From: a virus
Lineage: Duplodnaviria > Heunggongvirae > Uroviricota > Caudoviricetes
IMG/VR virus record: IMGVR_UViG_2724678985_000014
Reading direction: 5' to 3' (one strand)
Length of the DNA: 14,514 bases
The notes beneath the pieces are model-generated. The model had not been told where the DNA came from. It worked only from the letters and a program-made list of their open reading frames with translations, and did not search any database. Made by a program: the position numbers and the translations under genes. Numbering within the stretch: position 1 is the first letter of the stretch; each line of letters opens with the position of its first letter. Shown here piece by piece: positions 1 through 11,034 of this stretch.

Positions 1-73
1 CACCCTGACCGTTATAAACCCACAGGGTGGTACCGGCAACTATGAGCGGTGCGAGAAGGTTTGGTCTTGGCAT
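1..73 (-). CDS. V: Major tail protein gpV, N-terminal 24 codons only (gene continues beyond window start)
   Basis: Minus-strand ATG at 73-71 opens MPRPNLLAPLIVAGTTLWVYNGQG, matching the remembered lambda gpV N-terminal motif (GAGTTLWVYKGSG). Lies directly downstream of U, as in lambda. Confidence 0.7.
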   Translation of the reverse strand, partial: MPRPNLLAPLIVAGTTLWVYNGQG

Positions 74-80
74 AACGTCC

Positions 81-476
81 TCACATCTCGTATGTAATGG
101 AATAAGTCAGATCTGCAGAACTCCATAACGCCATATCGTCATCACGACGATACTCATAGCCCTGCGTAACCATCGTGGTAATCAGTCCTGCCAGTGCCGG
201 GATCGCGGTCATCGCCGGGTAAATCCGGCTTTCCATCCACTGATCAAGCTCTGAATCCGGTACCTGTGCCGGTAAAAACACCTCAATATGCAGCGTGGCC
301 CGCCAGGTATCTGCATCCAGCTCTTCACCGGTATACTCTGCATCCGTCAGATAAACCGCGATCGCAGGAAAATCCTCTTCGTCAAAAACAACGGGGCGAC
401 CATCAAACAGCGTCGCCCCGTGTTCATGCTGCTCGAGTGCATCCAGCACTGCGGCACGAATGTCAGTGTGTTTCAT
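81..476 (-). CDS. U: Tail terminator protein gpU
   Basis: 131 aa, same length as lambda gpU and near-identical along the whole protein (MKHT..RAAVLDALE...DLTY.ITYEM). Start overlaps the Z stop, as in lambda. Confidence 0.92.
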   Translation of the reverse strand: MKHTDIRAAVLDALEQHEHGATLFDGRPVVFDEEDFPAIAVYLTDAEYTGEELDADTWRATLHIEVFLPAQVPDSELDQWMESRIYPAMTAIPALAGLITTMVTQGYEYRRDDDMALWSSADLTYSITYEM

Positions 477-1006
477 CGTTTTATTGCAATCCTCAGTTGT
501 TGTTTCAGCGCGTATGCCAGTTCTTTAGGCAGGCGTTCACGCCGGATACGGTCAACATTCTCATCAAATGCCTGTTTCAGTGGGGCCGCCATCGGGATTT
601 TCACCACATCAATGGGGTAACGGTTTTTCCCGGCCACACGCTGCATGACATGCCAGCGACCATTTTTTAATCGCTGAATAAATGCCCGCTGATACCGATG
701 CTGACCGGCTTTAAGTATGCTGTTCGGGCGACGCCCCAGCATCCTGATCCCCAGCTTAATCACAGGGAGATCACCGCGGTTAACGATAATTCTGGCATTC
801 GGATTTCTGACCGTCGCCCGTTTCAGTCTGGACCGTTCCTTAACCAGTTTCCGGCGAACCTTTGTCTCCCGGGCAACCTGTGATGAAGACTGATTAATCG
901 CCGTTGTGGCCACGCGGTTAATGGCCATTGCTGAAGCCGCCGGAATGGCGTTTTTACGAACCCGGCTCAGATTGTCAATCGCCTGATCAAGCCCTTTTAT
1001 CGCCAT
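473..1006 (-). CDS. Z: Tail completion protein gpZ
   Basis: 177 aa. N-terminus MAIKGL.QA..NLSR and C-terminus NGRWHVMQRVAGKNRYPIDVVKIPMA...RIRRERLPKEL match remembered lambda gpZ. Conserved position between FII and U. Confidence 0.9.
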   Translation of the reverse strand: MAIKGLDQAIDNLSRVRKNAIPAASAMAINRVATTAINQSSSQVARETKVRRKLVKERSRLKRATVRNPNARIIVNRGDLPVIKLGIRMLGRRPNSILKAGQHRYQRAFIQRLKNGRWHVMQRVAGKNRYPIDVVKIPMAAPLKQAFDENVDRIRRERLPKELAYALKQQLRIAIKR

Positions 1007-1021
1007 AATTTCACCCTGCGT

Positions 1022-1375
1022 TTATCGTCGCCGGTTAACTGCGGGTGGTTGACCACGGTTGAGCCAGAGATAACAGCTGCCCCCGTCATCCGGAGAAACA
1101 CGATCCACCCAGAATATCTCACCATTAATGGTCAGCGTGTCACCACGCCGCACGGCACGAACCGTATCCGTCCGCACAAATAATGACGGGCTGCTTCCTT
1201 CAATACGGACCCCGCCACCGGCAAACCCCAGCGACTCCGGATCGTCAAAAACCCCCTGAACTTCGCTGCCACACTGTGCCCCCGAGGTGAACTGCGCACA
1301 GAGCCCCATCACTTCAACGATCGTACTGTCTACCCCGGCGAGGGCAGCATCAAAGGCATTCTGAAAATCACGCAT
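1022..1375 (-). CDS. FII: Head-tail connector protein gpFII
   Basis: 117 aa, same length as lambda gpFII. Strong match including GVFDDPE, VRVEGSSPSLFVRTD, WVDRVSPDDGGSC.LWL.RG.PPAVNRRR. Confidence 0.92.
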   Translation of the reverse strand: MRDFQNAFDAALAGVDSTIVEVMGLCAQFTSGAQCGSEVQGVFDDPESLGFAGGGVRIEGSSPSLFVRTDTVRAVRRGDTLTINGEIFWVDRVSPDDGGSCYLWLNRGQPPAVNRRR

Positions 1376-1751
1376 ATTCAGCCGTTCCGTGCTGTATCAT
1401 GGCCGTTGCCAGTGATGATGGCACCAGAACACGCATACCCCGTAACGCCAGCTCAACGGGACGACCTGTCTCCGGGCAATACCCCATTACTTGCAGGCAC
1501 TTCCGTACCCGGACGGCTTTAACATCATCCGGAGCATCCGTGTTGTTCAACTGCTCACCATCGTCTGTGTGATTTTGATCAGCCCCGCTCTCATCAGAGT
1601 GCATAATGCCCTCCGGGGAAACAGCAAGCTCCTCTTCCCACTCAGACACACGTTGAGCAATATCCGCAGCACTCCCCGACATATCCGCCTCGCGCCCCAG
1701 CAGGCCAGCCAGTTGACGAAGACGATTCAGATTTTCTTCTTTTGTTGCCAT
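1368..1751 (-). CDS. FI: DNA packaging / head completion protein gpFI-like
   Basis: Sits between E and FII as in lambda. Start placed at the ATG (1751-1749) preceded by AGGAGG (rc of 1757-1762), giving 127 aa beginning MATKEENLNRLRQLAG with an acidic middle. The ORF-track start at 1799 would run through the hairpin and the SD. Sequence similarity to lambda FI not verified from memory. Confidence 0.75.
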   Translation of the reverse strand: MATKEENLNRLRQLAGLLGREADMSGSAADIAQRVSEWEEELAVSPEGIMHSDESGADQNHTDDGEQLNNTDAPDDVKAVRVRKCLQVMGYCPETGRPVELALRGMRVLVPSSLATAMIQHGTAEYA

Positions 1752-1765
1752 CTCAGCCTCCTGTG

Positions 1766-1794
1766 AAAAAAGACACGGGGGCATTTCGCCCCCG
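1766..1794 (-). terminator. Intrinsic-terminator-like hairpin on the coding strand directly after E
   Basis: 7-bp GC stem (plus 1776-1782 cgggggc paired with 1788-1794 gcccccg, loop atttc). On the minus strand it is followed after 4 nt by TTTTTT (plus A6 at 1766-1771). Lies between the E stop (1803) and the FI SD. Confidence 0.4.
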
Positions 1795-1802
1795 CTCACG
1801 GA

Positions 1803-2831
1803 TTATTTCACCTGTACCACCACAAACTCATCCGGATCCGGCAGCACCATCAGCGGAGCGGACTGCGTCATGGTGAATTCACAGGACGGATCGCCCACGG
1901 TCAGCCAGTGTTTCGGGTAACGGGAAGAAGCCACCACTCCTTCAGACAACGCCTGTGCATCCTTAATGGCACCATAGCAACGAATCCCCTCTGCCGCCGT
2001 ATTCCCCAGCACCAGCATGCCCTCCGGCAGATAACGTTTTTCGGTACCGTCCTCTGCCACATAAGACGTTTTCGCCACCACAATGGCCAGATCGCCGTAA
2101 TACCCCTTGAAGGACACCACTGCGCCCAGATCTTTCACTGCCGTTTCGAGTTGTGAATTTGAGCCGCGACGGGTATCCAGTTTTTCGCGGAACAGCTTAA
2201 AGCCATTCAGCAGACGCCAGACCGTACCGTCCATAATGGCGATATTCACAAGGCCGCTGGCCTGATCGCAGTAGAGGTCAATATCATGCGTCGGATCAAA
2301 CGTATCACGGTCCTGCTCAGACCATTTTTTACCGTCAGCCTGCTCAATGTTATTTCCTTCAGAGCGCCCGAAATCCACCTCGACAGTATCAAACTGATCC
2401 CCTTCCATGGTGTATTTGCCATACAGCACGGCATTCACCGCCTGCATTTCTTCCACCTGGACAATGGCGTGCTCTTCCTGTTTGAGGTTATCGGTAATGA
2501 TACGCAGACGACGGTAGGCCGGGTCGTTCAGCTGAGCCGGATCTTCACCAGGAAGGCGCTCAACCGCCTGCTGGTAATTAAATTCGTGTTTCGGCTTGAC
2601 GTAGCCCGGACGCAACACGCGGGTTTCACCACCACGATGGCGCAGCACTTTTCCTTCAACGATCGGGGAGACATAGGCCGCCACCGGCGTTTTTCCGGTA
2701 ATTTTGTCCAGCATCACCTCTTCGGTGTGGAAATTCACCGTACGGCGGAAAAACAGCTCCAGAAACAGCGCACGAAATTTCACTTTTTGTTCGGTATAAC
2801 CGAGTAACTGGCGGGTCGTAAACAATCCCAT
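1803..2831 (-). CDS. E: Major capsid protein gpE
   Basis: 342 aa (lambda gpE is 341). Extensive match to remembered lambda gpE: TT.QLL...EQK.KF..LFL.LFF, YVSPIV.G.V.R.RGG, PGYVKPKHE.N, KLDTRRGSNS.LETAVKDLG, SAPLM.L.DPDEFV.VQ. Confidence 0.95.
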   Translation of the reverse strand: MGLFTTRQLLGYTEQKVKFRALFLELFFRRTVNFHTEEVMLDKITGKTPVAAYVSPIVEGKVLRHRGGETRVLRPGYVKPKHEFNYQQAVERLPGEDPAQLNDPAYRRLRIITDNLKQEEHAIVQVEEMQAVNAVLYGKYTMEGDQFDTVEVDFGRSEGNNIEQADGKKWSEQDRDTFDPTHDIDLYCDQASGLVNIAIMDGTVWRLLNGFKLFREKLDTRRGSNSQLETAVKDLGAVVSFKGYYGDLAIVVAKTSYVAEDGTEKRYLPEGMLVLGNTAAEGIRCYGAIKDAQALSEGVVASSRYPKHWLTVGDPSCEFTMTQSAPLMVLPDPDEFVVVQVK

Positions 2832-2860
2832 AAATCAGTTCCTTTCATTCAGAAATCAGT

Positions 2861-2880
2861 CAGGCCACCATGGTGGCCTG
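2861..2880. repeat. Perfect 20-bp palindrome CAGGCCACCATGGTGGCCTG in the D-E intergenic spacer
   Basis: Read directly from the sequence; the reverse complement is identical. Lies between the D stop (2889) and the E start (2831). No T-tract follows on either strand. Confidence 0.6.
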
Positions 2881-2888
2881 ATAACGTG

Positions 2889-3236
2889 TTACGGCAGAGC
2901 CGCGTGACTCAGGGCTGTGCCGGCAAAGGCATTTGCCTTTTTGTGTTCATCCACACTGTCAGGCCAGCGGATTGCCTCCGTCGCAAAGGTCCCCGACTTG
3001 TAATAGGTCAGCACCGTCTCTGTGCCTTCAAGCGGCAGTACCAGTATGCCAACCGCACTACCGGCTTTCTGTCCATCCCAGACCACCAGTTTCCCGGTGG
3101 CTTCATCCAGCATCAGGGGCGTCAGAGCCGGTGTTGCAGAAGAAATCCCGCTGCTGCCTGTGGCGGTATGAGCCGGATCATTACCAGCAAAAATACGTAC
3201 TTCCGCACGCTGTTCAGTGATGGTTTTCGTCACCAT
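2889..3236 (-). CDS. D: Head decoration protein gpD
   Basis: 115 aa (lambda gpD is 110). Matches NDPAHTAT, TPLMLD, KLV.WDG...GAAVGIL, YKSGTF, AFAGTA of lambda gpD. Conserved position between C/Nu3 and E. Confidence 0.9.
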   Translation of the reverse strand: MVTKTITEQRAEVRIFAGNDPAHTATGSSGISSATPALTPLMLDEATGKLVVWDGQKAGSAVGILVLPLEGTETVLTYYKSGTFATEAIRWPDSVDEHKKANAFAGTALSHAALP

Positions 3237-3272
3237 TTTGTTAAAACCTCATATTGATGGTCAGCACTGACT

Positions 3273-3875
3273 TCATGGCATGGCCATGAGCATTTTCACG
3301 TCCGCATCACCGTCTGCTGACGTCTGTGACACGCCACCCCGCACCGCTGCCGGTGAATGATTCGCCATGAAATGTTCAAACAGGGCGGTTGTGGATGCAG
3401 AGACCGGTTCGGCCTTACCTGATCCCGCAGCCAGCACAGCCCGGGCGTTCTCCACGGTCATTCCCGGGCAGGCCGCCAGTTTTTCAGCCTGCGCTTCTGC
3501 CCCTTTTGCCTCATCCAGGGCCATGATCTGATCACGAAGTGAGGGCCCGGCATTCGCCTGCGGTGAGGCAGCCAGGATCGGGCGGGCTTTTTCCACCGTC
3601 ATCTCCGGCATCGCCGCCAGCGTTGCCGCCAGTTGTTCACGACCTTTCGCTTCTTCACACGCCATAATGCGATCGGCTTCACTCTGCGCGGATGCCACCG
3701 GCTGCTGCGGTGCCGCCGCGGCCAGAATAGCCCGGGCCTGTTCAATGCTCATGCCCTGTTGTCCTGCCAGCATCGTGGCAAGCTGTTCACGTCCTTTCGC
3801 TTCCTGACACGTCAGGATCCCCATCACTCGCTGGTTCTCCTGCGCGGCAGCTTCCGTTGCAGTTAATTGCGGCAT
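3273..3875 (-). CDS. Nu3: Nu3-like scaffolding protein, nested in-frame within the 3' third of C
   Basis: In-frame ATG at 3875-3873 preceded by AGGAGG (rc of 3880-3885). Yields exactly 200 aa (lambda Nu3 is 201 aa and likewise shares the C reading frame and stop). Begins MPQLTATEAAAQENQRVMGILTCQEAKGRE. Confidence 0.6.
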   Translation of the reverse strand: MPQLTATEAAAQENQRVMGILTCQEAKGREQLATMLAGQQGMSIEQARAILAAAAPQQPVASAQSEADRIMACEEAKGREQLAATLAAMPEMTVEKARPILAASPQANAGPSLRDQIMALDEAKGAEAQAEKLAACPGMTVENARAVLAAGSGKAEPVSASTTALFEHFMANHSPAAVRGGVSQTSADGDADVKMLMAMP

Positions 3876-4778
3876 AGTGCCTCCTGTATCATGAGTGTTC
3901 AGCGCCGCAGCCATCACGCTGATGGCATCCGACGCATTGATTAATTCATCCGCCAGTCCGGCCTTAATAGCGGACTGACCTTCAAAAACGGCAGCCTCTG
4001 TCCCCGTGACAGCTTCCACAGACAGCCCCGTATACATCGCCACTTTTTCGGCAAACATCCGGTGCGCCGCATCAACCCGCTGCTGCATGTCCTGACGCAC
4101 CTCTGCCGGTAAGGCTTCAAACTGATTGCCATCCACCTTGTGCGCCCCGGCATAAATCAGCGTGATATCCACCCCGGCCTGCGCCAGATGACCGGCATAG
4201 CTGACATGGCTCATCATCACGCCAATGGAGCCGATACGGGATGTCTGGGTAACCAGCCGTCGGGAGCAGGCCGACGCCAGCAGCATGGCTGCAGAACAGG
4301 CCGTGTCATTGCACAGTGCCCAGACCGGCTTCTGCTGACGGAGGCGGTAAATCATGTCAGCGCAGTCAAACGCGCCGGCGGCCTGCCCGCCCGGACTGTC
4401 AATGTCCAGCAGTACGCCCCGCACTTGGCTATCTGCCATTGCCTGCTGAAGACAGGCGACAATGCCGTCATAGCCTGTCATTCCGGAAAATGGCCGCATA
4501 CCGCCCAGCCGGTGCACCAGCGTGCCGGTCACCGGCAGTACAGCAATACCGTTCACCACCCGGTAAACACGGGCCGGTCGTTTACCTCCGGCCATGTACT
4601 CGTCCGTTTCAGCCAGCATTCCGGGAGCATCAAGCTGTACCTGTTGTTGTGGTACCGAAAGACTTGCTGCCCCCATCTCGCGCCCGAGCGCGCAAAAGAA
4701 AACCCGCGCATAGGCGGGCTCCAGAAGCAGCGGTTCATTGAATGCTGCGGCAATAATGTGTGAAAGATTACGTCTCAC
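3273..4778 (-). CDS. C: Prohead protease / scaffold gpC (S49 ClpP-like serine peptidase family)
   Basis: 501 aa. Strong match to lambda gpC over the protease core (HIAAAFNEPL.LEPAYARVFFCAL, NGIAVLPV.GTLV, SGMTGY.GI, GGQ.AGAFDCAD.I, KPVWAL.ND, SRRLVTQT.R.GSIGVMM, GV.ITLIY.G.HKVDGN). Start is GTG at 4778-4776: no in-frame ATG lies between it and the upstream in-frame stop. Overlaps the 3' end of B. The C-terminal third is longer than lambda's because of internal repeats. Confidence 0.9.
   Translation of the reverse strand: MRRNLSHIIAAAFNEPLLLEPAYARVFFCALGREMGAASLSVPQQQVQLDAPGMLAETDEYMAGGKRPARVYRVVNGIAVLPVTGTLVHRLGGMRPFSGMTGYDGIVACLQQAMADSQVRGVLLDIDSPGGQAAGAFDCADMIYRLRQQKPVWALCNDTACSAAMLLASACSRRLVTQTSRIGSIGVMMSHVSYAGHLAQAGVDITLIYAGAHKVDGNQFEALPAEVRQDMQQRVDAAHRMFAEKVAMYTGLSVEAVTGTEAAVFEGQSAIKAGLADELINASDAISVMAAALNTHDTGGTMPQLTATEAAAQENQRVMGILTCQEAKGREQLATMLAGQQGMSIEQARAILAAAAPQQPVASAQSEADRIMACEEAKGREQLAATLAAMPEMTVEKARPILAASPQANAGPSLRDQIMALDEAKGAEAQAEKLAACPGMTVENARAVLAAGSGKAEPVSASTTALFEHFMANHSPAAVRGGVSQTSADGDADVKMLMAMP
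3423..3830 (-). repeat. Three tandem ~50-aa (~150-bp) in-frame repeats inside C/Nu3
   Basis: Protein repeats (C residues ~317-452): ILTCQEAKGREQLATMLAGQQGMSIEQARAILAAAAPQ / IMACEEAKGREQLAATLAAMPEMTVEKARPILAASPQ / IMALDEAKGAEAQAEKLAACPGMTVENARAVLAAGSG. I recall one such unit (ILNCEEAHGREEQARVLAETPGMTVKTARRILAAAPQ) in lambda. Boundaries approximate. Confidence 0.6.
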
Positions 4779-6360
4779 GTGGTGTTGTCTCCTCTTCCGG
4801 CCTGCGACTCTCCGCTATCTGCTGCTGATACGCCTGCGCTATCCACACCGGGCGTGAGAGTCCGGCTTTTTCCCGCTCTGCAGATTCCCTGACCTGCTGG
4901 CGGAAAATGTCCTGATAATCCTCGCCCATCAGCGCCAGCTCTTTCTCATACGTGCTCAGTCCGGCCTCAATGCGCATCACTGATTCCTGGACTTCCTTGA
5001 GCCCGTCAATGGCCATTCTTCCGGCACCAATCCACTCTGCCCGTGACCAGGCTGATCGCGCCTGATAAAAATCAAAACGTGCCCGTGGCGGACGAATAAT
5101 CCCCCGAAGAAGTGCCTCTTCCAGCCAGCAGGAAAACATCTGCGTGGCCAGTCGGGCCGCAATAAATTTTCGCCGCCCCATAAAATAGCGCCACGACTCA
5201 TTGGCGGAGGCGCGGGCACTTGAGTAACTGACCTTCGAGTAATCACGGGACAACTGTTCGTAGGAAACGCCAAGACCGGCGGCGATATACCGCAGCAGCG
5301 CCTGTTCAAGCGCCGAAAATCCATTGTCTGAATCCTGCGCTGTCTGCAGTTTCAGATCATCACCAGGGAAAAGGTGCGGAATTTTGACACCGCCCAGCGT
5401 CACGTGATTCGTGTCATACCAGCTGGAGAACTTCTCCAGAATATTAATAAGCGGATTATCCTTCTGCTCCTGTGGCGCGCCGGCGATATATTCAAAGGCC
5501 TTTTCGGTATCAAGTTCACTTTCAATCGTCGCTGCATACATCGCCTTCACTATGGCCGACTGAAGCTGTGTTGCCTGCAGGGAATCGAGCATCTTCAGCC
5601 GTTCCATGACGCTGTAAAACTGATTAGCCCCACGGGTCTGCCCGTCCTCCACCGGCTCGAAAATATGCAGCATAGCCGGACGCCCGGTGGGAAGTTCACG
5701 CGGGATCCGTTCCCATCGTCCACTACCAGAGAACGGAAAATCATCCTCACAAATATGGTACGCGACGGCACGGCCATATCGATCGACCTCCACACCGGCC
5801 CGCAGAAAACGGTTCCCCATACCGTGTCCAGGCGTGTCCACCCGTTTCGGACTCACGGCTTTAAAACGCGTACGGAATAACTGCGTGGTTTCCGTATCCC
5901 AGACCGGCTGCACAAAGATTTCGCCGTTAAACGCATGAACGCCCACACCTTCACGGATAAATTCCGTGAACGTGCGTTTTCCTTCCACGTCGATCTCGCC
6001 AGACATCCCTTCGGCGTATTCCGACCAGGCCGCCTCCACCTCATCGACAAAGCTTTTTGCTGCGGTCTCCCGCATCCCCAGCCAGCGCCAGTTCGGACGG
6101 TAGCTGATCAGAAACATATGCCCGACAATGTGATCCTTATGCAGAGCCACCGCATTAGCCGCTATTCCGTTATTGCGCACCAGATCATCTGCCCGGGCAT
6201 TCCCCAGACGCAACGCGGGTAGCAGGGCCGCATCGGCACTCTGCGCCGGTGGCAACCACTCCGCCATTTGCCCGCCAAATCCTGCACCGCCCCCGTTGTA
6301 GCTGAGACTCTCACGAAGCGGAACGCCGTTCACATCAATCAGGACAGGCGTTCGTTTCAT
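4768..6360 (-). CDS. B: Portal protein gpB
   Basis: 530 aa (lambda gpB is 533). Long blocks match remembered lambda gpB (ADDLVRNNG.AANA, FEPVEDGQTRGAN.FYSVME, KMLD.LQ.TQLQSAIVKAMYAATIESELDT, GLGVSYEQLSR.Y...SYS.ARASANESW.YFMGRRKF, GRMAIDGLKEVQE.VM.IEAGLSTYEKE). Confidence 0.95.
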   Translation of the reverse strand: MKRTPVLIDVNGVPLRESLSYNGGGAGFGGQMAEWLPPAQSADAALLPALRLGNARADDLVRNNGIAANAVALHKDHIVGHMFLISYRPNWRWLGMRETAAKSFVDEVEAAWSEYAEGMSGEIDVEGKRTFTEFIREGVGVHAFNGEIFVQPVWDTETTQLFRTRFKAVSPKRVDTPGHGMGNRFLRAGVEVDRYGRAVAYHICEDDFPFSGSGRWERIPRELPTGRPAMLHIFEPVEDGQTRGANQFYSVMERLKMLDSLQATQLQSAIVKAMYAATIESELDTEKAFEYIAGAPQEQKDNPLINILEKFSSWYDTNHVTLGGVKIPHLFPGDDLKLQTAQDSDNGFSALEQALLRYIAAGLGVSYEQLSRDYSKVSYSSARASANESWRYFMGRRKFIAARLATQMFSCWLEEALLRGIIRPPRARFDFYQARSAWSRAEWIGAGRMAIDGLKEVQESVMRIEAGLSTYEKELALMGEDYQDIFRQQVRESAEREKAGLSRPVWIAQAYQQQIAESRRPEEETTPRET

Positions 6361-6563
6361 AACCTCACTCCCAGCGGACGACGGCGACGCCGGGTTGTCC
6401 CCAGTACCGACTCCGCATCATTGATCGCCCGGTTAAGCTCATCCAGAGAAGCCGCCGTATATTCAATTCTGCGACCATCTTTCTGGACAGACACCACCCG
6501 TTTACCGGTTAATAAATCAAGGCGCGCCTGACGCAGCGCCTGCAGTTCAGCGACTGTAACCAT
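6357..6563 (-). CDS. W: Head-tail joining protein gpW
   Basis: 68 aa, same length as lambda gpW, with the conserved core L.TGKRV..VQKDGRR.E.TA.S...L...I...E and an RRRRP C-terminus. Overlaps the A stop and B start, as in lambda. Confidence 0.9.
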   Translation of the reverse strand: MVTVAELQALRQARLDLLTGKRVVSVQKDGRRIEYTAASLDELNRAINDAESVLGTTRRRRRPLGVRL

Positions 6564-8475
6564 TCACTCCTCCGGACAGCTTCGCTGCCAGTTCTTTAAG
6601 GGTTGGCCGGGTCGTCTCTTCTTCCCGGGATTTTGCCAGTACAGCCAGATCAAGCTGCCAGCGTTGCACGGACACACGTAATGCCGCGTAGGCATACACC
6701 AGGCAGTCCAGCGCTTCGTTACGCCGCTTTTTGTTATCCCACAGCAGACGCATCTTTCCTTTTTCCCACTTCTCCACAAGCTCTTCCGCGACCAGTTGCT
6801 GCGCCTCTGTCTGCGAAAAAATCTCCGGATCATCAGGAAAACGGATGGCATACGACGTGGCTTCATCCGCAGGCGTGGGATCGGCTTTCATACGGGCATA
6901 GAGAATTTCTTTTGCGGTGTCCGTTCCCACTTCACACAGATACACGCCCCGCTGATTGCGGGTTTTTGGCATGGTGATCACCGGCTTGCCATAGACAGAT
7001 GCGCCTTTTACCGGCAGCACCCGGAAAACACCGTGTTTTTTTGATCTCTGATAAACAATTTCACCATCGATCCCCCCGGTGTCCCAGCAGACACGGGAAA
7101 TAGTCATTTCGGTGCCATCCGCATGGCGGTATTTTTTGTTGATCGCCGCATCCACACGTAACAGCGTCTCTTCCTCATCAGGACGCCCCATAATGATGAT
7201 TTTATCCACCAGGAAGGCTTCCTCTCCCGGAGCCCATCCCCAGACATACATCTCAAAACGGTTTCGCTGCGAGTCAATGCCCGCCGTCAGATAAACCACC
7301 CGGGCAGGCACCGCCGCCGTGTAACGCACCACCTTATCCATCAGTACCTGGTGATCGAGTTTTTCGCCCACGGCCTCTTCCCAGGTCTCGCCCAGCGTGG
7401 TGTTCACAAAGGTTTTCAGGCCGTTGGGATCTTTCAGTGCATCCAGCCAGTCATAGACAATCTGTACCCAGGTGGTGAACGGACTGTACGCCGTCCAGAT
7501 ATGGAACGTGATGGAGCGCGGCGGCGGAATTTCATCACCCCGGGCGCTGAAAAACGTCAGACCGTCACGGGTCCACATGCCTGTGTTTTCACAGATCCAC
7601 CGCCCGTTGCTCTGGTCCAGTTCAGACTGATGGATCACGCAGCCATGATGTTCACAGAGGTAGAAAACACTTTCAGGGCTGTCCTTCTCCCATTTAAGCC
7701 CAAAAGGCGTGGACTCATCGCCAAATTTCAGATACTGCTCCTCCCCACAGTGCGGGCAGGGCACATAAAAACGCATAAAATGCGCCGACTCGTTAGCGGC
7801 TTTTTCGATCTGGCAGGTGCCTTTGATTTTAGGCGTCGAGCCGCGAATGGATTTTGGCCACACCGACCCCTCAATACGCTTATCCCCCAGCAGGGTTGGC
7901 GAGCCCTCTTTTTCGACATCCGGCTCGAACGAGGAAAGTTCGTCATAGCAGACCACGTCCACGGATTTTTCACGGTAGTTTTTGGCGGCAGCGCCGCCCA
8001 GGCACCAGAAACCGACGCCCGATGAAAAGCGTTTCAGCGTGAGAGTATTGTCACGATGTTTACGACCCAGCCATGGGGAAAGGTCTTTCAGGCATGGCAC
8101 GTTCCGAATCGTCGCCTCCACGTGAGACTTCATAAAATCTTCAGCGGCAGAATCCGTGGGCTGAAAAAGCAGACTGTTTCGGGATTTATGCTCAATAAAA
8201 TACCCGACCACCCCCAGCAACATCTTTGTATAGCCAACACGGGCAGATTTAATCAGATTAACAGTGCGGATCTGATCATTCCCCATGCTGTTCATGATGG
8301 CGATCTGGAATGGCAGCGTTTTCCATTCGCCCTCACCATATGAAGATTCTTTAGGCAGATAATAATTTTGATCAGCCCATTCAACTGGCGTCACCGGCAA
8401 TGCCCTTATCAGGGGCTGTAATGCAGTTGTGACAGCGCTCATCATATTATTCAGTTGTTGCTCTGATATATTCAT
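6547..8475 (-). CDS. A: Terminase large subunit gpA
   Basis: Start placed at MNISEQQLNNMM (ATG 8475-8473), not the ORF-track start at 8532, by alignment with the lambda gpA N-terminus (MNIS...VEWAD.NYYLPKES.Y.EG.W.TLPFQ.AIMN.MG.D.IR.VN..KSARVGY.KMLLGV). Gives 642 aa (lambda 641). Overlaps the Nu1 3' end by 29 nt, as in lambda. Confidence 0.93.
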   Translation of the reverse strand: MNISEQQLNNMMSAVTTALQPLIRALPVTPVEWADQNYYLPKESSYGEGEWKTLPFQIAIMNSMGNDQIRTVNLIKSARVGYTKMLLGVVGYFIEHKSRNSLLFQPTDSAAEDFMKSHVEATIRNVPCLKDLSPWLGRKHRDNTLTLKRFSSGVGFWCLGGAAAKNYREKSVDVVCYDELSSFEPDVEKEGSPTLLGDKRIEGSVWPKSIRGSTPKIKGTCQIEKAANESAHFMRFYVPCPHCGEEQYLKFGDESTPFGLKWEKDSPESVFYLCEHHGCVIHQSELDQSNGRWICENTGMWTRDGLTFFSARGDEIPPPRSITFHIWTAYSPFTTWVQIVYDWLDALKDPNGLKTFVNTTLGETWEEAVGEKLDHQVLMDKVVRYTAAVPARVVYLTAGIDSQRNRFEMYVWGWAPGEEAFLVDKIIIMGRPDEEETLLRVDAAINKKYRHADGTEMTISRVCWDTGGIDGEIVYQRSKKHGVFRVLPVKGASVYGKPVITMPKTRNQRGVYLCEVGTDTAKEILYARMKADPTPADEATSYAIRFPDDPEIFSQTEAQQLVAEELVEKWEKGKMRLLWDNKKRRNEALDCLVYAYAALRVSVQRWQLDLAVLAKSREEETTRPTLKELAAKLSGGVNGYSR

Positions 8476-8953
8476 CAAGTAAATCCGGTAATTTATCCCC
8501 TGCCCGCGCACACTGATTTGCCCCCTTAGCAATAAGGGTTTTCAGATGGTCAAGATGGCGCGGTGTTAAATCAGGAAACTGTCGCTGCATGGATAAAGGG
8601 ATGGAATCAAGCGTACTGGATAACGCCATTGCCAGCTTACTGAGGGCAAAAATACAGAATCCGGCGTCAATAAGCTTACCTTCGGTTACCTGATTTTTAA
8701 GTTTTTGAGCTACGGCCTGTTCTTCTGTCAGTTCAGCTCTGGCCCGAAGCAGCCTTTCCTCCAGATCGCCCTCGTCATCAGGTATTCTCTGATTGTGTTG
8801 TCGCCGCTCGCGATCTATCTCCAGTACAGTTTTAACGTCATAAAAAACTTCCCTCCCCCGACGCTCAACAGGAGGAACGCCCCATTTATCAAATGCCTGA
8901 ACAGATATACCGATGGAGGAGGCCATATCACTTTTATTCAATAAAAAGGCCAT
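8447..8953 (-). CDS. Nu1: Terminase small subunit (Nu1-like)
   Basis: C-terminal half matches lambda Nu1 (FC.F.LS..A....S.LD..PLS.QR.FP.L..RH.D.LK..I.KA...AA......P.LL.EYI). Start chosen at ATG 8953-8951, immediately preceded by GGAGAGGAG (rc of 8954-8962); an alternative ATG is at 8971. The longer ORF-track start at 9058 would run into cosB. N-terminal domain diverges from lambda. Confidence 0.8.
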   Translation of the reverse strand: MAFLLNKSDMASSIGISVQAFDKWGVPPVERRGREVFYDVKTVLEIDRERRQHNQRIPDDEGDLEERLLRARAELTEEQAVAQKLKNQVTEGKLIDAGFCIFALSKLAMALSSTLDSIPLSMQRQFPDLTPRHLDHLKTLIAKGANQCARAGDKLPDLLDEYIRATTE

Positions 8954-9168
8954 CTCCTCTCCATAAGCCATCGATAAAAAGCGATACAACAACCATGTGT
9001 TTTTACAAAACCATTTGATATCATTGACATTTTTCGCATTGACGACATCAAAACACATCGTAAGGTTGTTGTATTTATTTTATTTTCACCTTACTTATCA
9101 ATTAGATATGCCAAACAATTAAACAACAACTCCCCCTCAAAAAATCTCATAAATAGCGAAAACCCGCG
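8954..9168 (-). promoter_or_regulatory. cosB-like region between cosN and the Nu1 start (candidate terminase small-subunit binding repeats)
   Basis: Position equivalent to lambda cosB. Two direct CATTGAC repeats (plus 9022-9028 and 9037-9043) are flanked by an imperfect ~20-bp inverted repeat (8984-9003 atacaacaaccatgtgtttt versus 9050-9074 aaaacacatcgtaaggttgttgtat). Sequence differs from remembered lambda cosB. Confidence 0.5.
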
Positions 9169-9180
9169 AGGTCGCCGCCC
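9169..9180 (-). other. cosN: 12-nt cohesive-end sequence GGGCGGCGACCT (minus-strand sense), identical to lambda
   Basis: Minus strand reads ...GATCCGACAGGTTACG|GGGCGGCGACCT|CGCGGGTTTTCGCTATTTATGA. This matches the remembered lambda right-end / left-end junction over ~50 nt with one mismatch in the right-end portion (CCGGCGATCC versus remembered lambda CCGGTGATCC). Confidence 0.85.
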
Positions 9181-9216
9181 CGTAACCTGTCGGATCGCCG
9201 GAAAGGACCCGTAAAA

Positions 9217-9231
9217 TGATAATAATTATCA
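9217..9231. promoter_or_regulatory. Perfect 7-1-7 inverted repeat TGATAAT-A-ATTATCA (Fur-box-like; alternatively part of the cosQ-proximal region)
   Basis: Read directly. Matches the 7-1-7 representation of the Fur box. Lies 37-51 bp from cosN on the genome-right-end side and about 150 bp upstream of the plus-strand ORF at 9380. Confidence 0.4.
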
Positions 9232-9379
9232 TCTACATGTCACAACGTGCATCTACGCCATCAAACCACGTCAAATAATCAATTATGACGCAGGTATCGT
9301 ATTAATTGATCTGCATCAAATTAACGTAAAAGCAACTTCAGATAATACAAATCAGCAACACTGAATATGGGGCAACATT

Positions 9380-9604
9380 ATGTCATCAAAGAACAGAACC
9401 CGCAGAACAACAACCCGCAACATCCGATTTCCAAACCAGATGATTGAACAAATTAACATCGCTCTTGATCTGAAAGGTTCAGGAAATTTTTCAGCGTGGG
9501 TTATTGAAGCCTGCAGAAGAAGATTAATTAATGAAAAATATTCTCAATTTGTACCCAACAAAGACAAACACGACCAGAGCACCTGTTCAGACAGGTTTAC
9601 TTAA
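9380..9604 (+). CDS. Small basic protein with a predicted ribbon-helix-helix DNA-binding fold (hypothetical)
   Basis: 74 aa. After a basic N-terminal tail, the segment TRNIRFPNQMIEQINIALDLKGSGNFSAWVIEACRRRL fits the RHH pattern (beta strand, helix, G-x-S/N turn, helix). Only plus-strand gene in the window. Followed by a hairpin terminator. Weak SD. Possibly related to small DUF-type proteins found next to terminase genes in E. coli prophages (recollection, unverified). Confidence 0.5.
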   Translation: MSSKNRTRRTTTRNIRFPNQMIEQINIALDLKGSGNFSAWVIEACRRRLINEKYSQFVPNKDKHDQSTCSDRFT

Positions 9605-9622
9605 ACGACTTATATATGACAC

Positions 9623-9652
9623 AAAAAGCGACCACTAAAGTCGCTTTTTCTT
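9623..9652. terminator. Bidirectional intrinsic terminator between the convergent RHH ORF and PerC/Pch-like gene
   Basis: 8-bp stem (9625-9632 aaagcgac paired with 9640-9647 gtcgcttt, 7-nt loop). Followed by a T-rich run on the plus strand (tttcttatgg) and, on the minus strand, by TTTTTGTGT. Confidence 0.6.
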
Positions 9653-9685
9653 ATGGTAACAGGCAATAACTCTCTCAGATATTTT

Positions 9686-10000
9686 TTAGCATTTTTTTGA
9701 CCGCGCGTTTCCGGACGTATTCTGTTCTCCTGTCCCTTTATATCGTCGGAATACCCGCCGCTCTTCAAATCCCATTCCCAACTCAGAATGTAGTCGGTTG
9801 ACCGCTTGTTTTATTTCGGTCAGGTTCACCGGTGAAACCGGAGTCCGGCGCGCCTTACGCAAACACTCTGCTCGTTTCTGTGCCGCCACTTTTCTTTTCT
9901 GGTCATCACTTAGCTGTACCATCACTTTTGCCCATCGTTCAGCTGCTCTCCGGTACAGTCCTTTTTTCTCCAGACATTCTGCCAGGTGATCATGTAGCAT
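9686..10000 (-). CDS. PerC/Pch-family transcriptional regulator (prophage-encoded PerC homolog)
   Basis: 104 aa. N-terminal L.E.LEKKGLYRRAAERWAKVM matches the PerC-family signature as I remember it (LE..GLWRRAA.RW). EHEC Pch proteins are about this length and prophage-borne (recollection). ATG at 10000 has GGAGG 6 nt upstream (rc of 10007-10011). Confidence 0.65.
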   Translation of the reverse strand: MLHDHLAECLEKKGLYRRAAERWAKVMVQLSDDQKRKVAAQKRAECLRKARRTPVSPVNLTEIKQAVNRLHSELGMGFEERRVFRRYKGTGEQNTSGNARSKKC

Positions 10001-10072
10001 AAGTAACCTCCGTTTATCTACAGACTGCCATCCTGAATTAACCGTCCTTAATAAGACAACAATAAAAAACTA

Positions 10073-10103
10073 ATTATATAAAAACAATAAAAATAATATA
10101 CAA
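10073..10103 (-). promoter_or_regulatory. Candidate sigma70 promoter for the PerC/Pch-like gene
   Basis: On the minus strand: TTGTAT (rc of 10098-10103), 17-nt spacer, TATATAAT (rc of 10073-10080), about 70 bp upstream of the ATG. The region is very AT-rich, so many hexamer matches occur by chance. Confidence 0.25.
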
Positions 10104-10463
10104 AAAAACTAAACAACAAAGAAAAGCAAATCATATCTGGCATTTTAATTGAAAGAGCAATTACCGAACAAAAGACGCTGACTATATACTCAAAACCAAA
10201 CAACAATTCTGCCAATCAGGTATCATGGCAACACACGGAATTACCATGTTTTTGCCTTCTCTGCCCATACAATACGGGCATATACTTCATACTCTATTGT
10301 AATATTTCTATCCATGCGCCCCACTCCATTTACCTGTAAATAATATTCAAAATATTTATCACAGAAATCGTTTTTGGCCATGAACTGAGCACACTATAAA
10401 GTCCGGAACTGACTCTTTGTTAAATTACCTTAACGTTACCAGTAACACCTTCGTAACAAAACA

Positions 10464-10931
10464 TCACGGTATACACTGGGTACGGATATATTCCTGTGCT
10501 CCTTCCAGTTGCTTCTGCATTGCCATCAGCCGTTCTCTGAGGATGAAATAATCCCGTTCAGCGGCTTCTGCCAGTCGGGGACCGGTTGCATTATCCACGC
10601 CGGAGGTGATGGGGGCTTTACGCAAGGAGCCTGGACAGTTGGCGTTGATCCGCAGGCGCTTACGACCAGCGGCAACATCAGCGCGCAGAGTTTCATTTTC
10701 AGCTCTCGCATCGGCTAATTCCCTCGAGTATCTGGCATCAAGTGCAGCAACATCACGCTGGCGCTGCTGCATATCAGTAATGGTTGCATTTGCCAGCTCC
10801 AGCTCACTGACTTTTTTATCGCGCTGCTCTTTGTAGGTTATGGCGTTATCACGGTAATGATTCAGCCCCAGACTAAGCGCACCACAGGCCACCAGCAGGG
10901 CAATGATGACCACGCACAGTACGCGGTTCAT
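10464..10931 (-). CDS. Rz: i-spanin Rz
   Basis: Start placed at MNRVLCVVIIALLVACGAL (ATG 10931-10929), giving 155 aa (lambda Rz is 153). Strong match to lambda Rz (NHYRDNAITYK.QRDK, L.LANA.ITDMQ.RQRDVAALDA.Y..ELADA.AEN..LR.DVAAGR.RL, SGVDNA..PRLA..AERDYF.LRERL..MQKQLEG.Q.YI...C). N-terminal TM segment. Confidence 0.88.
   Translation of the reverse strand: MNRVLCVVIIALLVACGALSLGLNHYRDNAITYKEQRDKKVSELELANATITDMQQRQRDVAALDARYSRELADARAENETLRADVAAGRKRLRINANCPGSLRKAPITSGVDNATGPRLAEAAERDYFILRERLMAMQKQLEGAQEYIRTQCIP
10526..10711 (-). CDS. Rz1: o-spanin Rz1 (lipoprotein), embedded in the +1 frame of Rz
   Basis: 61 aa. MRELKMKLCALMLPLVVSACGS... matches lambda Rz1 (MLKLKMMLCVMMLPLVVVGC...CVKPPPPPAWIMQPPPDWQTPLNGIISPSE.G): lipobox VSAC, proline-rich mature domain. 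A second in-frame ATG lies at 10696. Confidence 0.8.
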   Translation of the reverse strand: MRELKMKLCALMLPLVVSACGSTPTVQAPCVKPPSPPAWIMQPVPDWQKPLNGIISSSENG

Positions 10932-10932
10932 T

Positions 10933-11034
10933 TCACCACCAGCGTATCTGACCAATGAAATAACCGGAAGCCATAATCACAAACACCAGCCAGATAAGGA
11001 TGAACTTCCAGGTGGATAATTTTTCAGCCATCAT
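10933..11034 (-). CDS. Hypothetical 33-aa single-pass membrane peptide immediately upstream of, and coupled to, Rz
   Basis: ATGATG at 11034-11029 preceded by GGGAG (6-nt spacer). Encodes MMAEKLSTWKFILIWLVFVIMASGYFIGQIRWW with a ~20-residue hydrophobic core. Its TGA stop (10935-10933) is 1 nt from the Rz ATG (TGG TGG TGA A ATG). The longer ORF-track form (start 11151) would run through a hairpin and has no SD. Confidence 0.45.
   Translation of the reverse strand: MMAEKLSTWKFILIWLVFVIMASGYFIGQIRWW

Follow-up and report, generated by a model that had tools for sequence, protein, structure and literature searches.

A Fur-box palindrome beside cosQ in a lambdoid prophage corresponds to published Escherichia coli Fur sites and is inherited with the lambda-type cos module

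The perfect palindrome at positions 9217–9231 of the DNA analysed here (IMG/VR record IMGVR_UViG_2724678985_000014, a stretch of 14,514 nucleotides, hereafter the window) is best explained, with a probability of roughly 0.8, as a high-affinity operator of the host Fur protein that is a regular, though non-essential, component of the lambda-type cos site, whose likeliest effect would be iron-dependent silencing of transcription toward the terminase genes, and which is not an operator of the neighbouring DUF3950 or PerC-like genes. The palindrome is an already published Fur site and is ordinary for this window. Binding of Fur to it is prior art, known from identical and near-identical alleles of E. 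coli K-12, and is predicted for the window prophage. Comparison of lambda-like phages shows that the box is linked to cos and independent of cargo genes.

Prophage context and organization of the cos region

The window belongs to an apparently complete lambdoid prophage of the STEC O111 type and is oriented on lambda's minus strand. In the stretches tested, 9165–9262 and 9560–10470, it is 100% identical to prophages of STEC O111 and related strains. Its elements follow one another in the order terminase, cosB, cosN, cosQ, box, DUF3950 gene, PerC-like gene and Rz (Table 1). The Nu1-family gene is a homologue of K-12 nohA and nohD, the namesakes of the published Fur sites considered below. An earlier note on this DNA had placed the palindrome about 40 bp from cosN and about 150 bp upstream of an "RHH ORF", the DUF3950 gene of the present analysis; both estimates agree with the distances found, which are 36 nt from cosN and 148 nt to the ATG at 9380. 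Its statement that the palindrome sits where lambda has cosQ needs correction, since cosQ is a separate and intact element, corresponding in sequence and position to the annotated cosQ of phages 434 and 21, and the box starts 6 nt beyond it. The A-run of the intervening linker, together with the T that follows, constitutes the outer hexamer of the 19-bp Fur consensus and is conserved across the groups of right-hand flanks described below.

A mosaic joint was observed at cos (approximately 9050–9140 versus 9140–9514). On its right, cosN, cosQ, the box and DUF3950 are 91–98% identical to lambda/434-type phages, whereas leftward of it cosB and the Nu1-family gene have no DNA-level match to lambda. 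Because DNA identity to lambda is found right of the joint only, the prophage joins a lambda-type right end with another packaging-specificity module.

Table 1. Features of the packaging region and its right-hand neighbourhood in the window
Feature	Position	Strand	Remarks
Large terminase	6547–8475/8532	-	
Terminase small subunit, Nu1 family	8447–8953	-	Pfam Phage_Nu1; start according to RefSeq of the identical O111 prophage
cosN cohesive-end sequence	9169–9180	-	AGGTCGCCGCCC, reverse complement of GGGCGGCGACCT; aligns with the annotated cos of DE3/lambda
cosQ, packaging-termination subsite	9204–9210	-	AGGACCC (GGGTCCT on the lambda top strand)
A-rich linker GTAAAA, cosQ to box	9211–9216	.	length 3 to 8 nt among phages
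Full Fur-site cluster	9212–9236	.	9-1-9 single-dimer site 9215–9233, AATGATAATAATTATCATC
Overlapping 19-bp consensus matches in the cluster	9212–9230; 9218–9236		16/19; 15/19, minus strand
Sigma-70-like promoter match	9216–9243	-	-35 GTGACA 9243–9238, 16-nt spacer, -10 TATCAT 9221–9216
7-1-7 palindrome, Fur-box core	9217–9231	.	0 mismatches to the 7-1-7 Fur model TGATAATnATTATCA
DUF3950 (YlcI/YnfO family) ORF	9380–9604	+	Pfam DUF3950, E = 1.8e-18; RefSeq YlcI/YnfO family
PerC-family ORF	9686–10000	-	Pfam PerC, E = 5e-44
Rz	10464–10955	-	

The palindrome and its match to Fur recognition models

The sequence is exactly that described in the earlier note as a perfect 7-1-7 palindrome, with TGATAAT and ATTATCA on either side of an A: TGATAATAATTATCA consists of two fully complementary 7-nt arms and a central A. 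A repeat search extended the symmetry to 8-1-8 (ATGATAAT/ATTATCAT, 9216–9232). With up to three mismatches allowed, the 15-mer matched seven times in the window, where shuffles gave an expectation of 0.20 and none of 200 reached seven, several of the seven near-matches being self-overlaps of the one palindrome.

In addition to its mismatch-free fit to the 7-1-7 model, the palindrome scores 16/19 against the classical 19-bp Fur consensus (GATAATGATAATCATTATC) at 9212–9230, which is the best and the sole such match on both strands of the 14.5-kb window (29 kb of two-strand sequence). Further matches of 14–15/19 overlap the palindrome on both strands, at offsets of 3 and 6 bp. Apart from this cluster, a second and weaker consensus match (14/19, GCTGATCAAAATTATTATC) lies at 8358–8376 on the minus strand, within the terminase coding region, and is probably a chance occurrence in AT-rich coding sequence.

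Identity with published Fur sites of E. coli K-12

Alignment with the right end of lambda, proposed in the earlier note as a check, revealed the same arms at the same position with G in place of A at the centre (NC_001416, box at 48452–48466, minus-strand sequence CGTAACCTGTCGGATCACCGGAAAGGACCCGTAAAGTGATAATGATTATCATC). In E. coli MG1655 the window 19-mer at 9215–9233 (AATGATAATAATTATCATC) is identical to positions 580592–580610 (centre 580601) of the ylcI-nohD region of the prophage DLP12, the identity between DLP12 and the window spanning window positions 9213–9319. The nohA-ynfO intergenic region of the MG1655 prophage Qin bears the lambda allele, and this Qin/lambda "nohA" allele differs from the window 19-mer at the centre base and at one outer position. 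Phage 434 shares the centre A of DLP12 and the window. At the DLP12, Qin and lambda loci, every Fur-consensus match of at least 14/19 sits on the palindrome.

Both K-12 loci are represented among published Fur sites. The nohB Fur cluster, with 25.3 bits at coordinate 579824, ranks third in the E. coli table of Chen et al. (2007; PMC2189734), who credit the site to the Fur titration assay of Stojiljkovic et al. (1994). The nohA cluster was given 22.3 bits at coordinate 1634624; a nohA oligonucleotide was shifted by 150 nM Fur in an EMSA, and a nohA Sau3A fragment came from the in vivo Fur selection of Vassinova and Kozyrev (2000), as reported in the same study (Chen et al., 2007; PMC2189734). 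When the U00096.2 to NC_000913.3 offset of +1976, taken from the nohA gene coordinates, is applied, coordinate 1634624 falls on the centre of the Qin palindrome (1636600). Since the M9 Fur model of Chen et al. (2007; PMC2189734) spans 19 bp (-9 to +9) and the 19-mers are identical, the nohB score of 25.3 bits holds unchanged for the window. The nohA and nohB genes are not mentioned in the main text of Beauchene (2015).

Table 4 of the former study (PMC2189734) places the nohB cluster at -133, whereas the palindrome centre at 580601 was measured approximately 233 bp upstream of the nohD start at 580834, the same distance as Chen et al. give for nohA. The mismatch between -133 and about 233 is probably a typographical or annotation difference.

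The box travels with cosQ

When window positions 9140–9300 were compared with phages by BLAST, the homology of divergent cos phages stopped at one of two points, either at the outer edge of the box (21, phi80, N15, HK225, mEp237, Stx1a phages and PhiR12) or directly past cosQ (4A7, 3W, 2B8, 4C10 and an Enterobacter phage). In a first comparison of 17 cos-containing loci anchored on cosQ, the box was found 5–7 bp past cosQ, followed by unrelated sequence, in lambda, DE3, 434, Turner, phi80, N15, 21, HK225, mEp237, Stx1_1380 and PhiR12_1. It lies 5 nt from cosQ in phi80 (TGATAATAATTATCA), mEp237 (TGATAATGATTATCA), HK225 (CGATAATAATTATCA), N15 (CGATAATAGTTATCG) and 21/ev017 (CGAGAATAATTATCA), and 7 nt from it in Stx1_1380 (TGATAATGGTTATCA) and PhiR12_1 (TGATAATGATTGTCA); in all seven the sequence downstream of the box is unrelated to that of the window.

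An unbiased census used a pattern confined to the cosN-proximal/R4/cosQ segment (CGTAAC-N5-GGAT-N4-RGAAAGGACCC), which left out more divergent cos sites such as that of Salmonella Gifsy-1. It yielded at least 120 viral contigs and 24 genome contigs; together with the earlier loci, at least 163 matches were sorted by their right-hand flank into 23 groups. Among the matches listed, a box with no more than three mismatches was present 3–8 nt beyond cosQ (mode 5–6) in 17 of the 23 flank groups and absent in the other six. With one representative per flank group, the information content was 1.61 bits per position in the box versus 0.37 over the next 25 nt. The palindrome is thus located inside cos and co-inherited with cosN and cosQ among lambda-like phages, as is characteristic of a lambda-type cos subsite. 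Since it is kept with cosQ while the flanks change, it belongs to the cos module and not to the DUF3950 gene or other cargo. Of the interpretations offered in the earlier note, that of a conserved cos-proximal sequence is the one borne out, both by lambda, with the same arms at the same position, and by the 17 of 23 flank groups among the matches listed.

Conservation of this kind has to be weighed against common descent, under which the box would be a functionless AT-rich palindrome hitch-hiking with the cosN-cosQ block, its likeness to a Fur site being coincidental. All copies do descend from a common cos block, and the 17 contexts therefore do not count as separate origins; decay is seen in some prophage copies (TGATAATCATTGTCG and the 3-bp-deleted AAATAATAATTATCA), and the six of 23 contexts that are boxless among the matches listed show no obvious harm. 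Coincidence is nevertheless the least credible of the explanations considered here: the linker gains substitutions and indels and the outer sequence is replaced, yet the box core retains 1.4–2.0 bits per position; the 16/19 consensus match is unique in 29 kb of two-strand sequence; and Fur binds the published K-12 alleles in vitro and in vivo (PMC2189734).

The box-bearing segment occurs in 3,828 of 5,426 complete E. coli genomes (~70%), with up to seven copies per genome. The degraded boxes TGATAATCATTGTCG and AAATAATAATTATCA were encountered in some prophages (E. coli ECGI0523 and two viral contigs), the latter having arisen by a 3-bp deletion in the linker and left arm, which shows that a resident prophage can lose the site by erosion. 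Among the genome contigs of the census, the genuine hosts were Escherichia, Shigella and Citrobacter only, and most other matches look like lambda contamination. The exact lambda right end was recovered from assemblies of Shewanella, Oceanobacillus, Neobacillus, Kitasatospora, Veillonella, Leeuwenhoekiella and Raphidiopsis, from an Alicyclobacillus "plasmid" and from several MAGs, mostly at contig ends and in contigs of ~1x coverage, one Shewanella contig measuring 48,542 bp. These sequences in unrelated taxa look like control or ladder DNA contaminating public genomes.

The neighbouring accessory genes

The earlier note had suggested that the palindrome could be a Fur box serving as an iron-responsive operator for accessory genes, or alternatively an operator for the RHH protein. 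The first half of the former reading stands, the 19-mer being identical to that of the published nohB site, and the second half fell with the co-occurrence tests. That the box is an iron-responsive operator for DUF3950 (9380–9604), for the PerC-like gene (9686–10000) or for both, or a site bound by the putatively RHH-like DUF3950 protein, is accordingly very improbable. It does precede the DUF3950 ATG by 148 bp, on the same strand, box and DUF3950 do occur together in lambda, 434, DLP12, Qin and the window, and the control of the phage cargo stx1 by Fur provides a precedent. However, box and gene each occur without the other. No DUF3950 gene follows the box in phi80, N15, 21, HK225, mEp237, Stx1_1380 or PhiR12_1; conversely, BP-4795 carries DUF3950 and has no Fur-like box in its 5.1-kb locus. 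A site about 150 bp before the start codon is, moreover, too distant to occlude a gene-proximal promoter; the PerC-like gene is on the opposite strand and is transcribed from the far side, with a hairpin-plus-T-run (9624–9650) in between; the box fits the host Fur consensus and shows no phage-specific motif; and a separate inverted repeat at 9278–9310 is a better candidate for a local operator. The failure of co-occurrence in both directions, together with the 148 nt separating box and ATG, led to the rejection of a DUF3950/RHH autoregulatory operator. Recurrence of the palindrome at this position in lambda and in cos phages free of the accessory genes was the observation that the earlier note had named as a refutation, and it was made; it removes the accessory-gene reading and leaves Fur binding untouched.

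The repeat at 9278–9310 (ATCAATTATGACG/CGTATTAATTGAT) has 13-nt arms that are 85% complementary and a 7-nt spacer; it is situated ~70–100 nt upstream of the DUF3950 start, is kept in lambda, DLP12 and Qin, and is preferable to the Fur box as a candidate operator or promoter element of DUF3950. Between the convergent DUF3950 (plus strand) and PerC-like (minus strand) ORFs, positions 9624–9650 (AAAAAGCGAC-CACTAAA-GTCGCTTTTT) form a GC-stem hairpin between an A-run and a T-run, which looks like a bidirectional intrinsic terminator, although it was not among the features returned by an automatic scan. The PerC-family activator gene itself, located between Rz and cos, lies in a region present in 673 of 5,426 complete E. 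coli genomes, typically in three copies, and identical in STEC O111/O121-type strains; it is probably a pch-like virulence-regulator moron.

Lambda encodes a 64-aa ORF of the DUF3950 (YlcI/YnfO) family by its right end (complement 48109–48303), which is unannotated in NC_001416 and annotated in phage 434 (OL657227). In BP-4795, a phage with HK97-type HNH/terminase genes, the DUF3950 gene sits next to the packaging genes on their upstream side and is encoded on the other strand, which suggests a conserved positional link of DUF3950 to packaging modules of different types. A PDB sequence search with DUF3950 gave no match.

Transcription across the box and its predicted silencing

Occupancy of the box by Fur in the window is predicted from its sequence identity with the K-12 alleles, binding having been shown for identical or near-identical ones. 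In iron-replete cells, at least one Fur-Fe2+ dimer would occupy 9215–9233 together with the overlapping sites at 3- and 6-bp offsets, and this occupancy would cover an AT-rich, promoter-like patch and extend to the edge of cosQ. The likeliest effect would be an iron-dependent silencing of transcription that starts in or crosses this patch toward cos and the terminase genes, a step proposed tentatively. The filing of the K-12 Fur sites under nohA and nohB matches silencing in this direction (Chen et al., 2007; PMC2189734).

The sigma-70-like match with the hexamers GTGACA and TATCAT (10/12) is directed toward cos and terminase and has its -10 within the box; such matches are just as numerous in the region as shuffling predicts. 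The match is peculiar to the flank type of the window, the lambda -10 position reading TATCAC, and it presumably reflects the "promoter region" logic by which the K-12 sites were filed under nohA and nohB. When a conserved -35 was sought in both directions in one representative of each of the 17 box-bearing flank groups, none was found. A conserved promoter over the box was consequently rejected, as its -10-like hexamers are the Fur half-sites GATAAT and TATCAT themselves and no -35 is conserved. Lambdoid late genes are normally transcribed from pR' through cos, so that a promoter at the box has no obvious need. An RNA hairpin on the late transcript was also discarded, a 7-bp A/U stem being unable to close on a loop of 1 nt.

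Dispensability for packaging and a possible accessory role at cos

Phage 2B8 possesses cosQ and a terminase whose gpA and Nu1 proteins are identical to those of lambda at 637 of 641 and 179 of 181 residues, respectively, and it has no Fur-like box within ~700 bp beyond cosQ. In the boxless phages as a whole, no displaced box was detected within 700–1,000 bp beyond cosQ. Since 2B8 lacks the box despite a 99% identical terminase, the box is not an essential packaging signal, and an essential terminase signal is ruled out by 2B8 together with the other boxless contexts, including a satellite-like element.

A weaker form of a packaging role was considered as well, in which Fur at the box, or the box DNA itself, serves as an accessory element of cos, comparable to host IHF at I1 in cosB, and renders DNA maturation iron-sensitive. 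It could act as a speed bump or marker met by the translocating terminase just before cosQ, aiding termination, or as a shield for the prophage cos or the first-injected DNA end. Among the alternatives to silencing toward the terminase genes this one carries the greatest weight, followed by the operator for DUF3950 or other accessory genes and then by the functionless hitch-hiker, and it is still unlikely. The box lies 3–8 bp from cosQ on the arrival side of the packaging motor, is kept across four packaging specificities (lambda, 21, N15 and phi80) and more than 12 unrelated right flanks, has the mosaic boundary exactly at its outer edge and is accompanied by no conserved promoter; the Fur footprint, ~30 bp at known sites (Chen et al., 2007; PMC2189734), would reach cosQ. 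Such a role is, however, at odds with the dispensability of the box, given the near-identical gpA and Nu1 of the boxless 2B8 and the six boxless contexts out of 23 among the matches listed, and with a distance from cosQ that varies by 5 bp, against a rigid terminase-Fur-DNA geometry. Host genetics and the cos literature point the same way: the Keio host-factor screen, with its 57 lambda host-dependency genes, makes no mention of fur, cosQ is defined as 7 bp (PMC4669245), and papers of the Feiss laboratory (including PMC4669245 and PMC9026076) and the curated records of 21, 434 and phi80 mark cosQ, R4 and I2 and nothing at the box. It is likewise doubtful, if slightly less so, that host Fur is an unrecognised, non-essential accessory factor at lambda-type cos, tuning a cos event by iron status as IHF acts at cosB; the event concerned might be the termination of packaging, the protection of the prophage cos or of the DNA end injected first, or a shielding of the terminase genes against read-in transcription.

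The satellite-like element (IMGVR_UViG_2737471861_000017, positions 1–7400) combines a lambda-type cosN and cosQ with the absence of a Fur box. Its AlpA gene abuts cosQ; next come capsid genes resembling D and E of lambda, then SSB and a primase/helicase of the D5 type. The element may represent a PICI-type satellite that encodes capsid proteins and relies on a lambda-type cos.

Novelty and implications

No link between a Fur box and the lambda cos/terminase region was found in the searchable literature, while the primary papers of 1994 and 2000 may already remark on it. What is new relative to that literature is the conservation of the Fur site as part of the cos module in lambda, 434, 21, phi80 and N15. 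For the window itself this carries little weight, and the box reveals no iron control of the PerC-like and DUF3950 accessory genes. More generally, one of the strongest Fur sites of E. coli turns out to belong integrally to the lambda cos module, which can nevertheless do without it, and the many prophage copies of the box add up to a sizeable reservoir of strong Fur sites in E. coli genomes that is usually overlooked. Its retention beside cosQ, despite differing packaging specificities and unrelated neighbours, raises the question of whether iron status touches packaging or terminase expression.

Comparison with known systems

Like the classical Fur boxes of the 7-1-7 and 9-1-9 models, the window palindrome is a perfect 7-1-7 repeat with a score of 16/19 against the 19-bp consensus, and its overlapping matches at 3- and 6-bp offsets show the arrangement typical of Fur clusters. 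A Fur box typically overlaps the promoter of a gene for iron uptake or storage, whereas that of the window has neither a conserved promoter nor an iron-related gene beside it.

The Fur sites of K-12 nohB/nohD (DLP12) and nohA (Qin) are the same element as the window box. In DLP12, Qin, lambda and the window alike, the box is 6 nt outside cosQ, between Nu1-family and DUF3950 genes. The K-12 loci are cryptic remnants only, whereas the window prophage is apparently complete, has a cosB/Nu1 module unlike that of lambda and carries an additional PerC-like gene. The nohA and nohB sites are treated in the searchable literature as promoter-region sites, with cos unmentioned.

Stx1 phages and the window have in common a host Fur site borne by a lambdoid prophage. 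The Fur box of stx1 overlaps the toxin gene's own promoter, whereas the window box is attached to no cargo gene, and boxes of the window type are also found in phages with no cargo at that position.

A further comparison is with the subsites of lambda cos (cosQ, cosN and cosB with R1–R3, R4 and I1/I2). Unlike these, the box is unannotated as a subsite and is missing in viable lambda-like phages that share the terminase, and its spacing to cosQ is variable, whereas the cosQ-cosN and cosN-cosB spacings are critical (PMC9026076). It nevertheless lies, as they do, within the cos region of ~200 bp and moves with cosQ and cosN; and just as I1 of lambda cos binds host IHF, the box is the target, in its published alleles, of a host DNA-binding protein, Fur.
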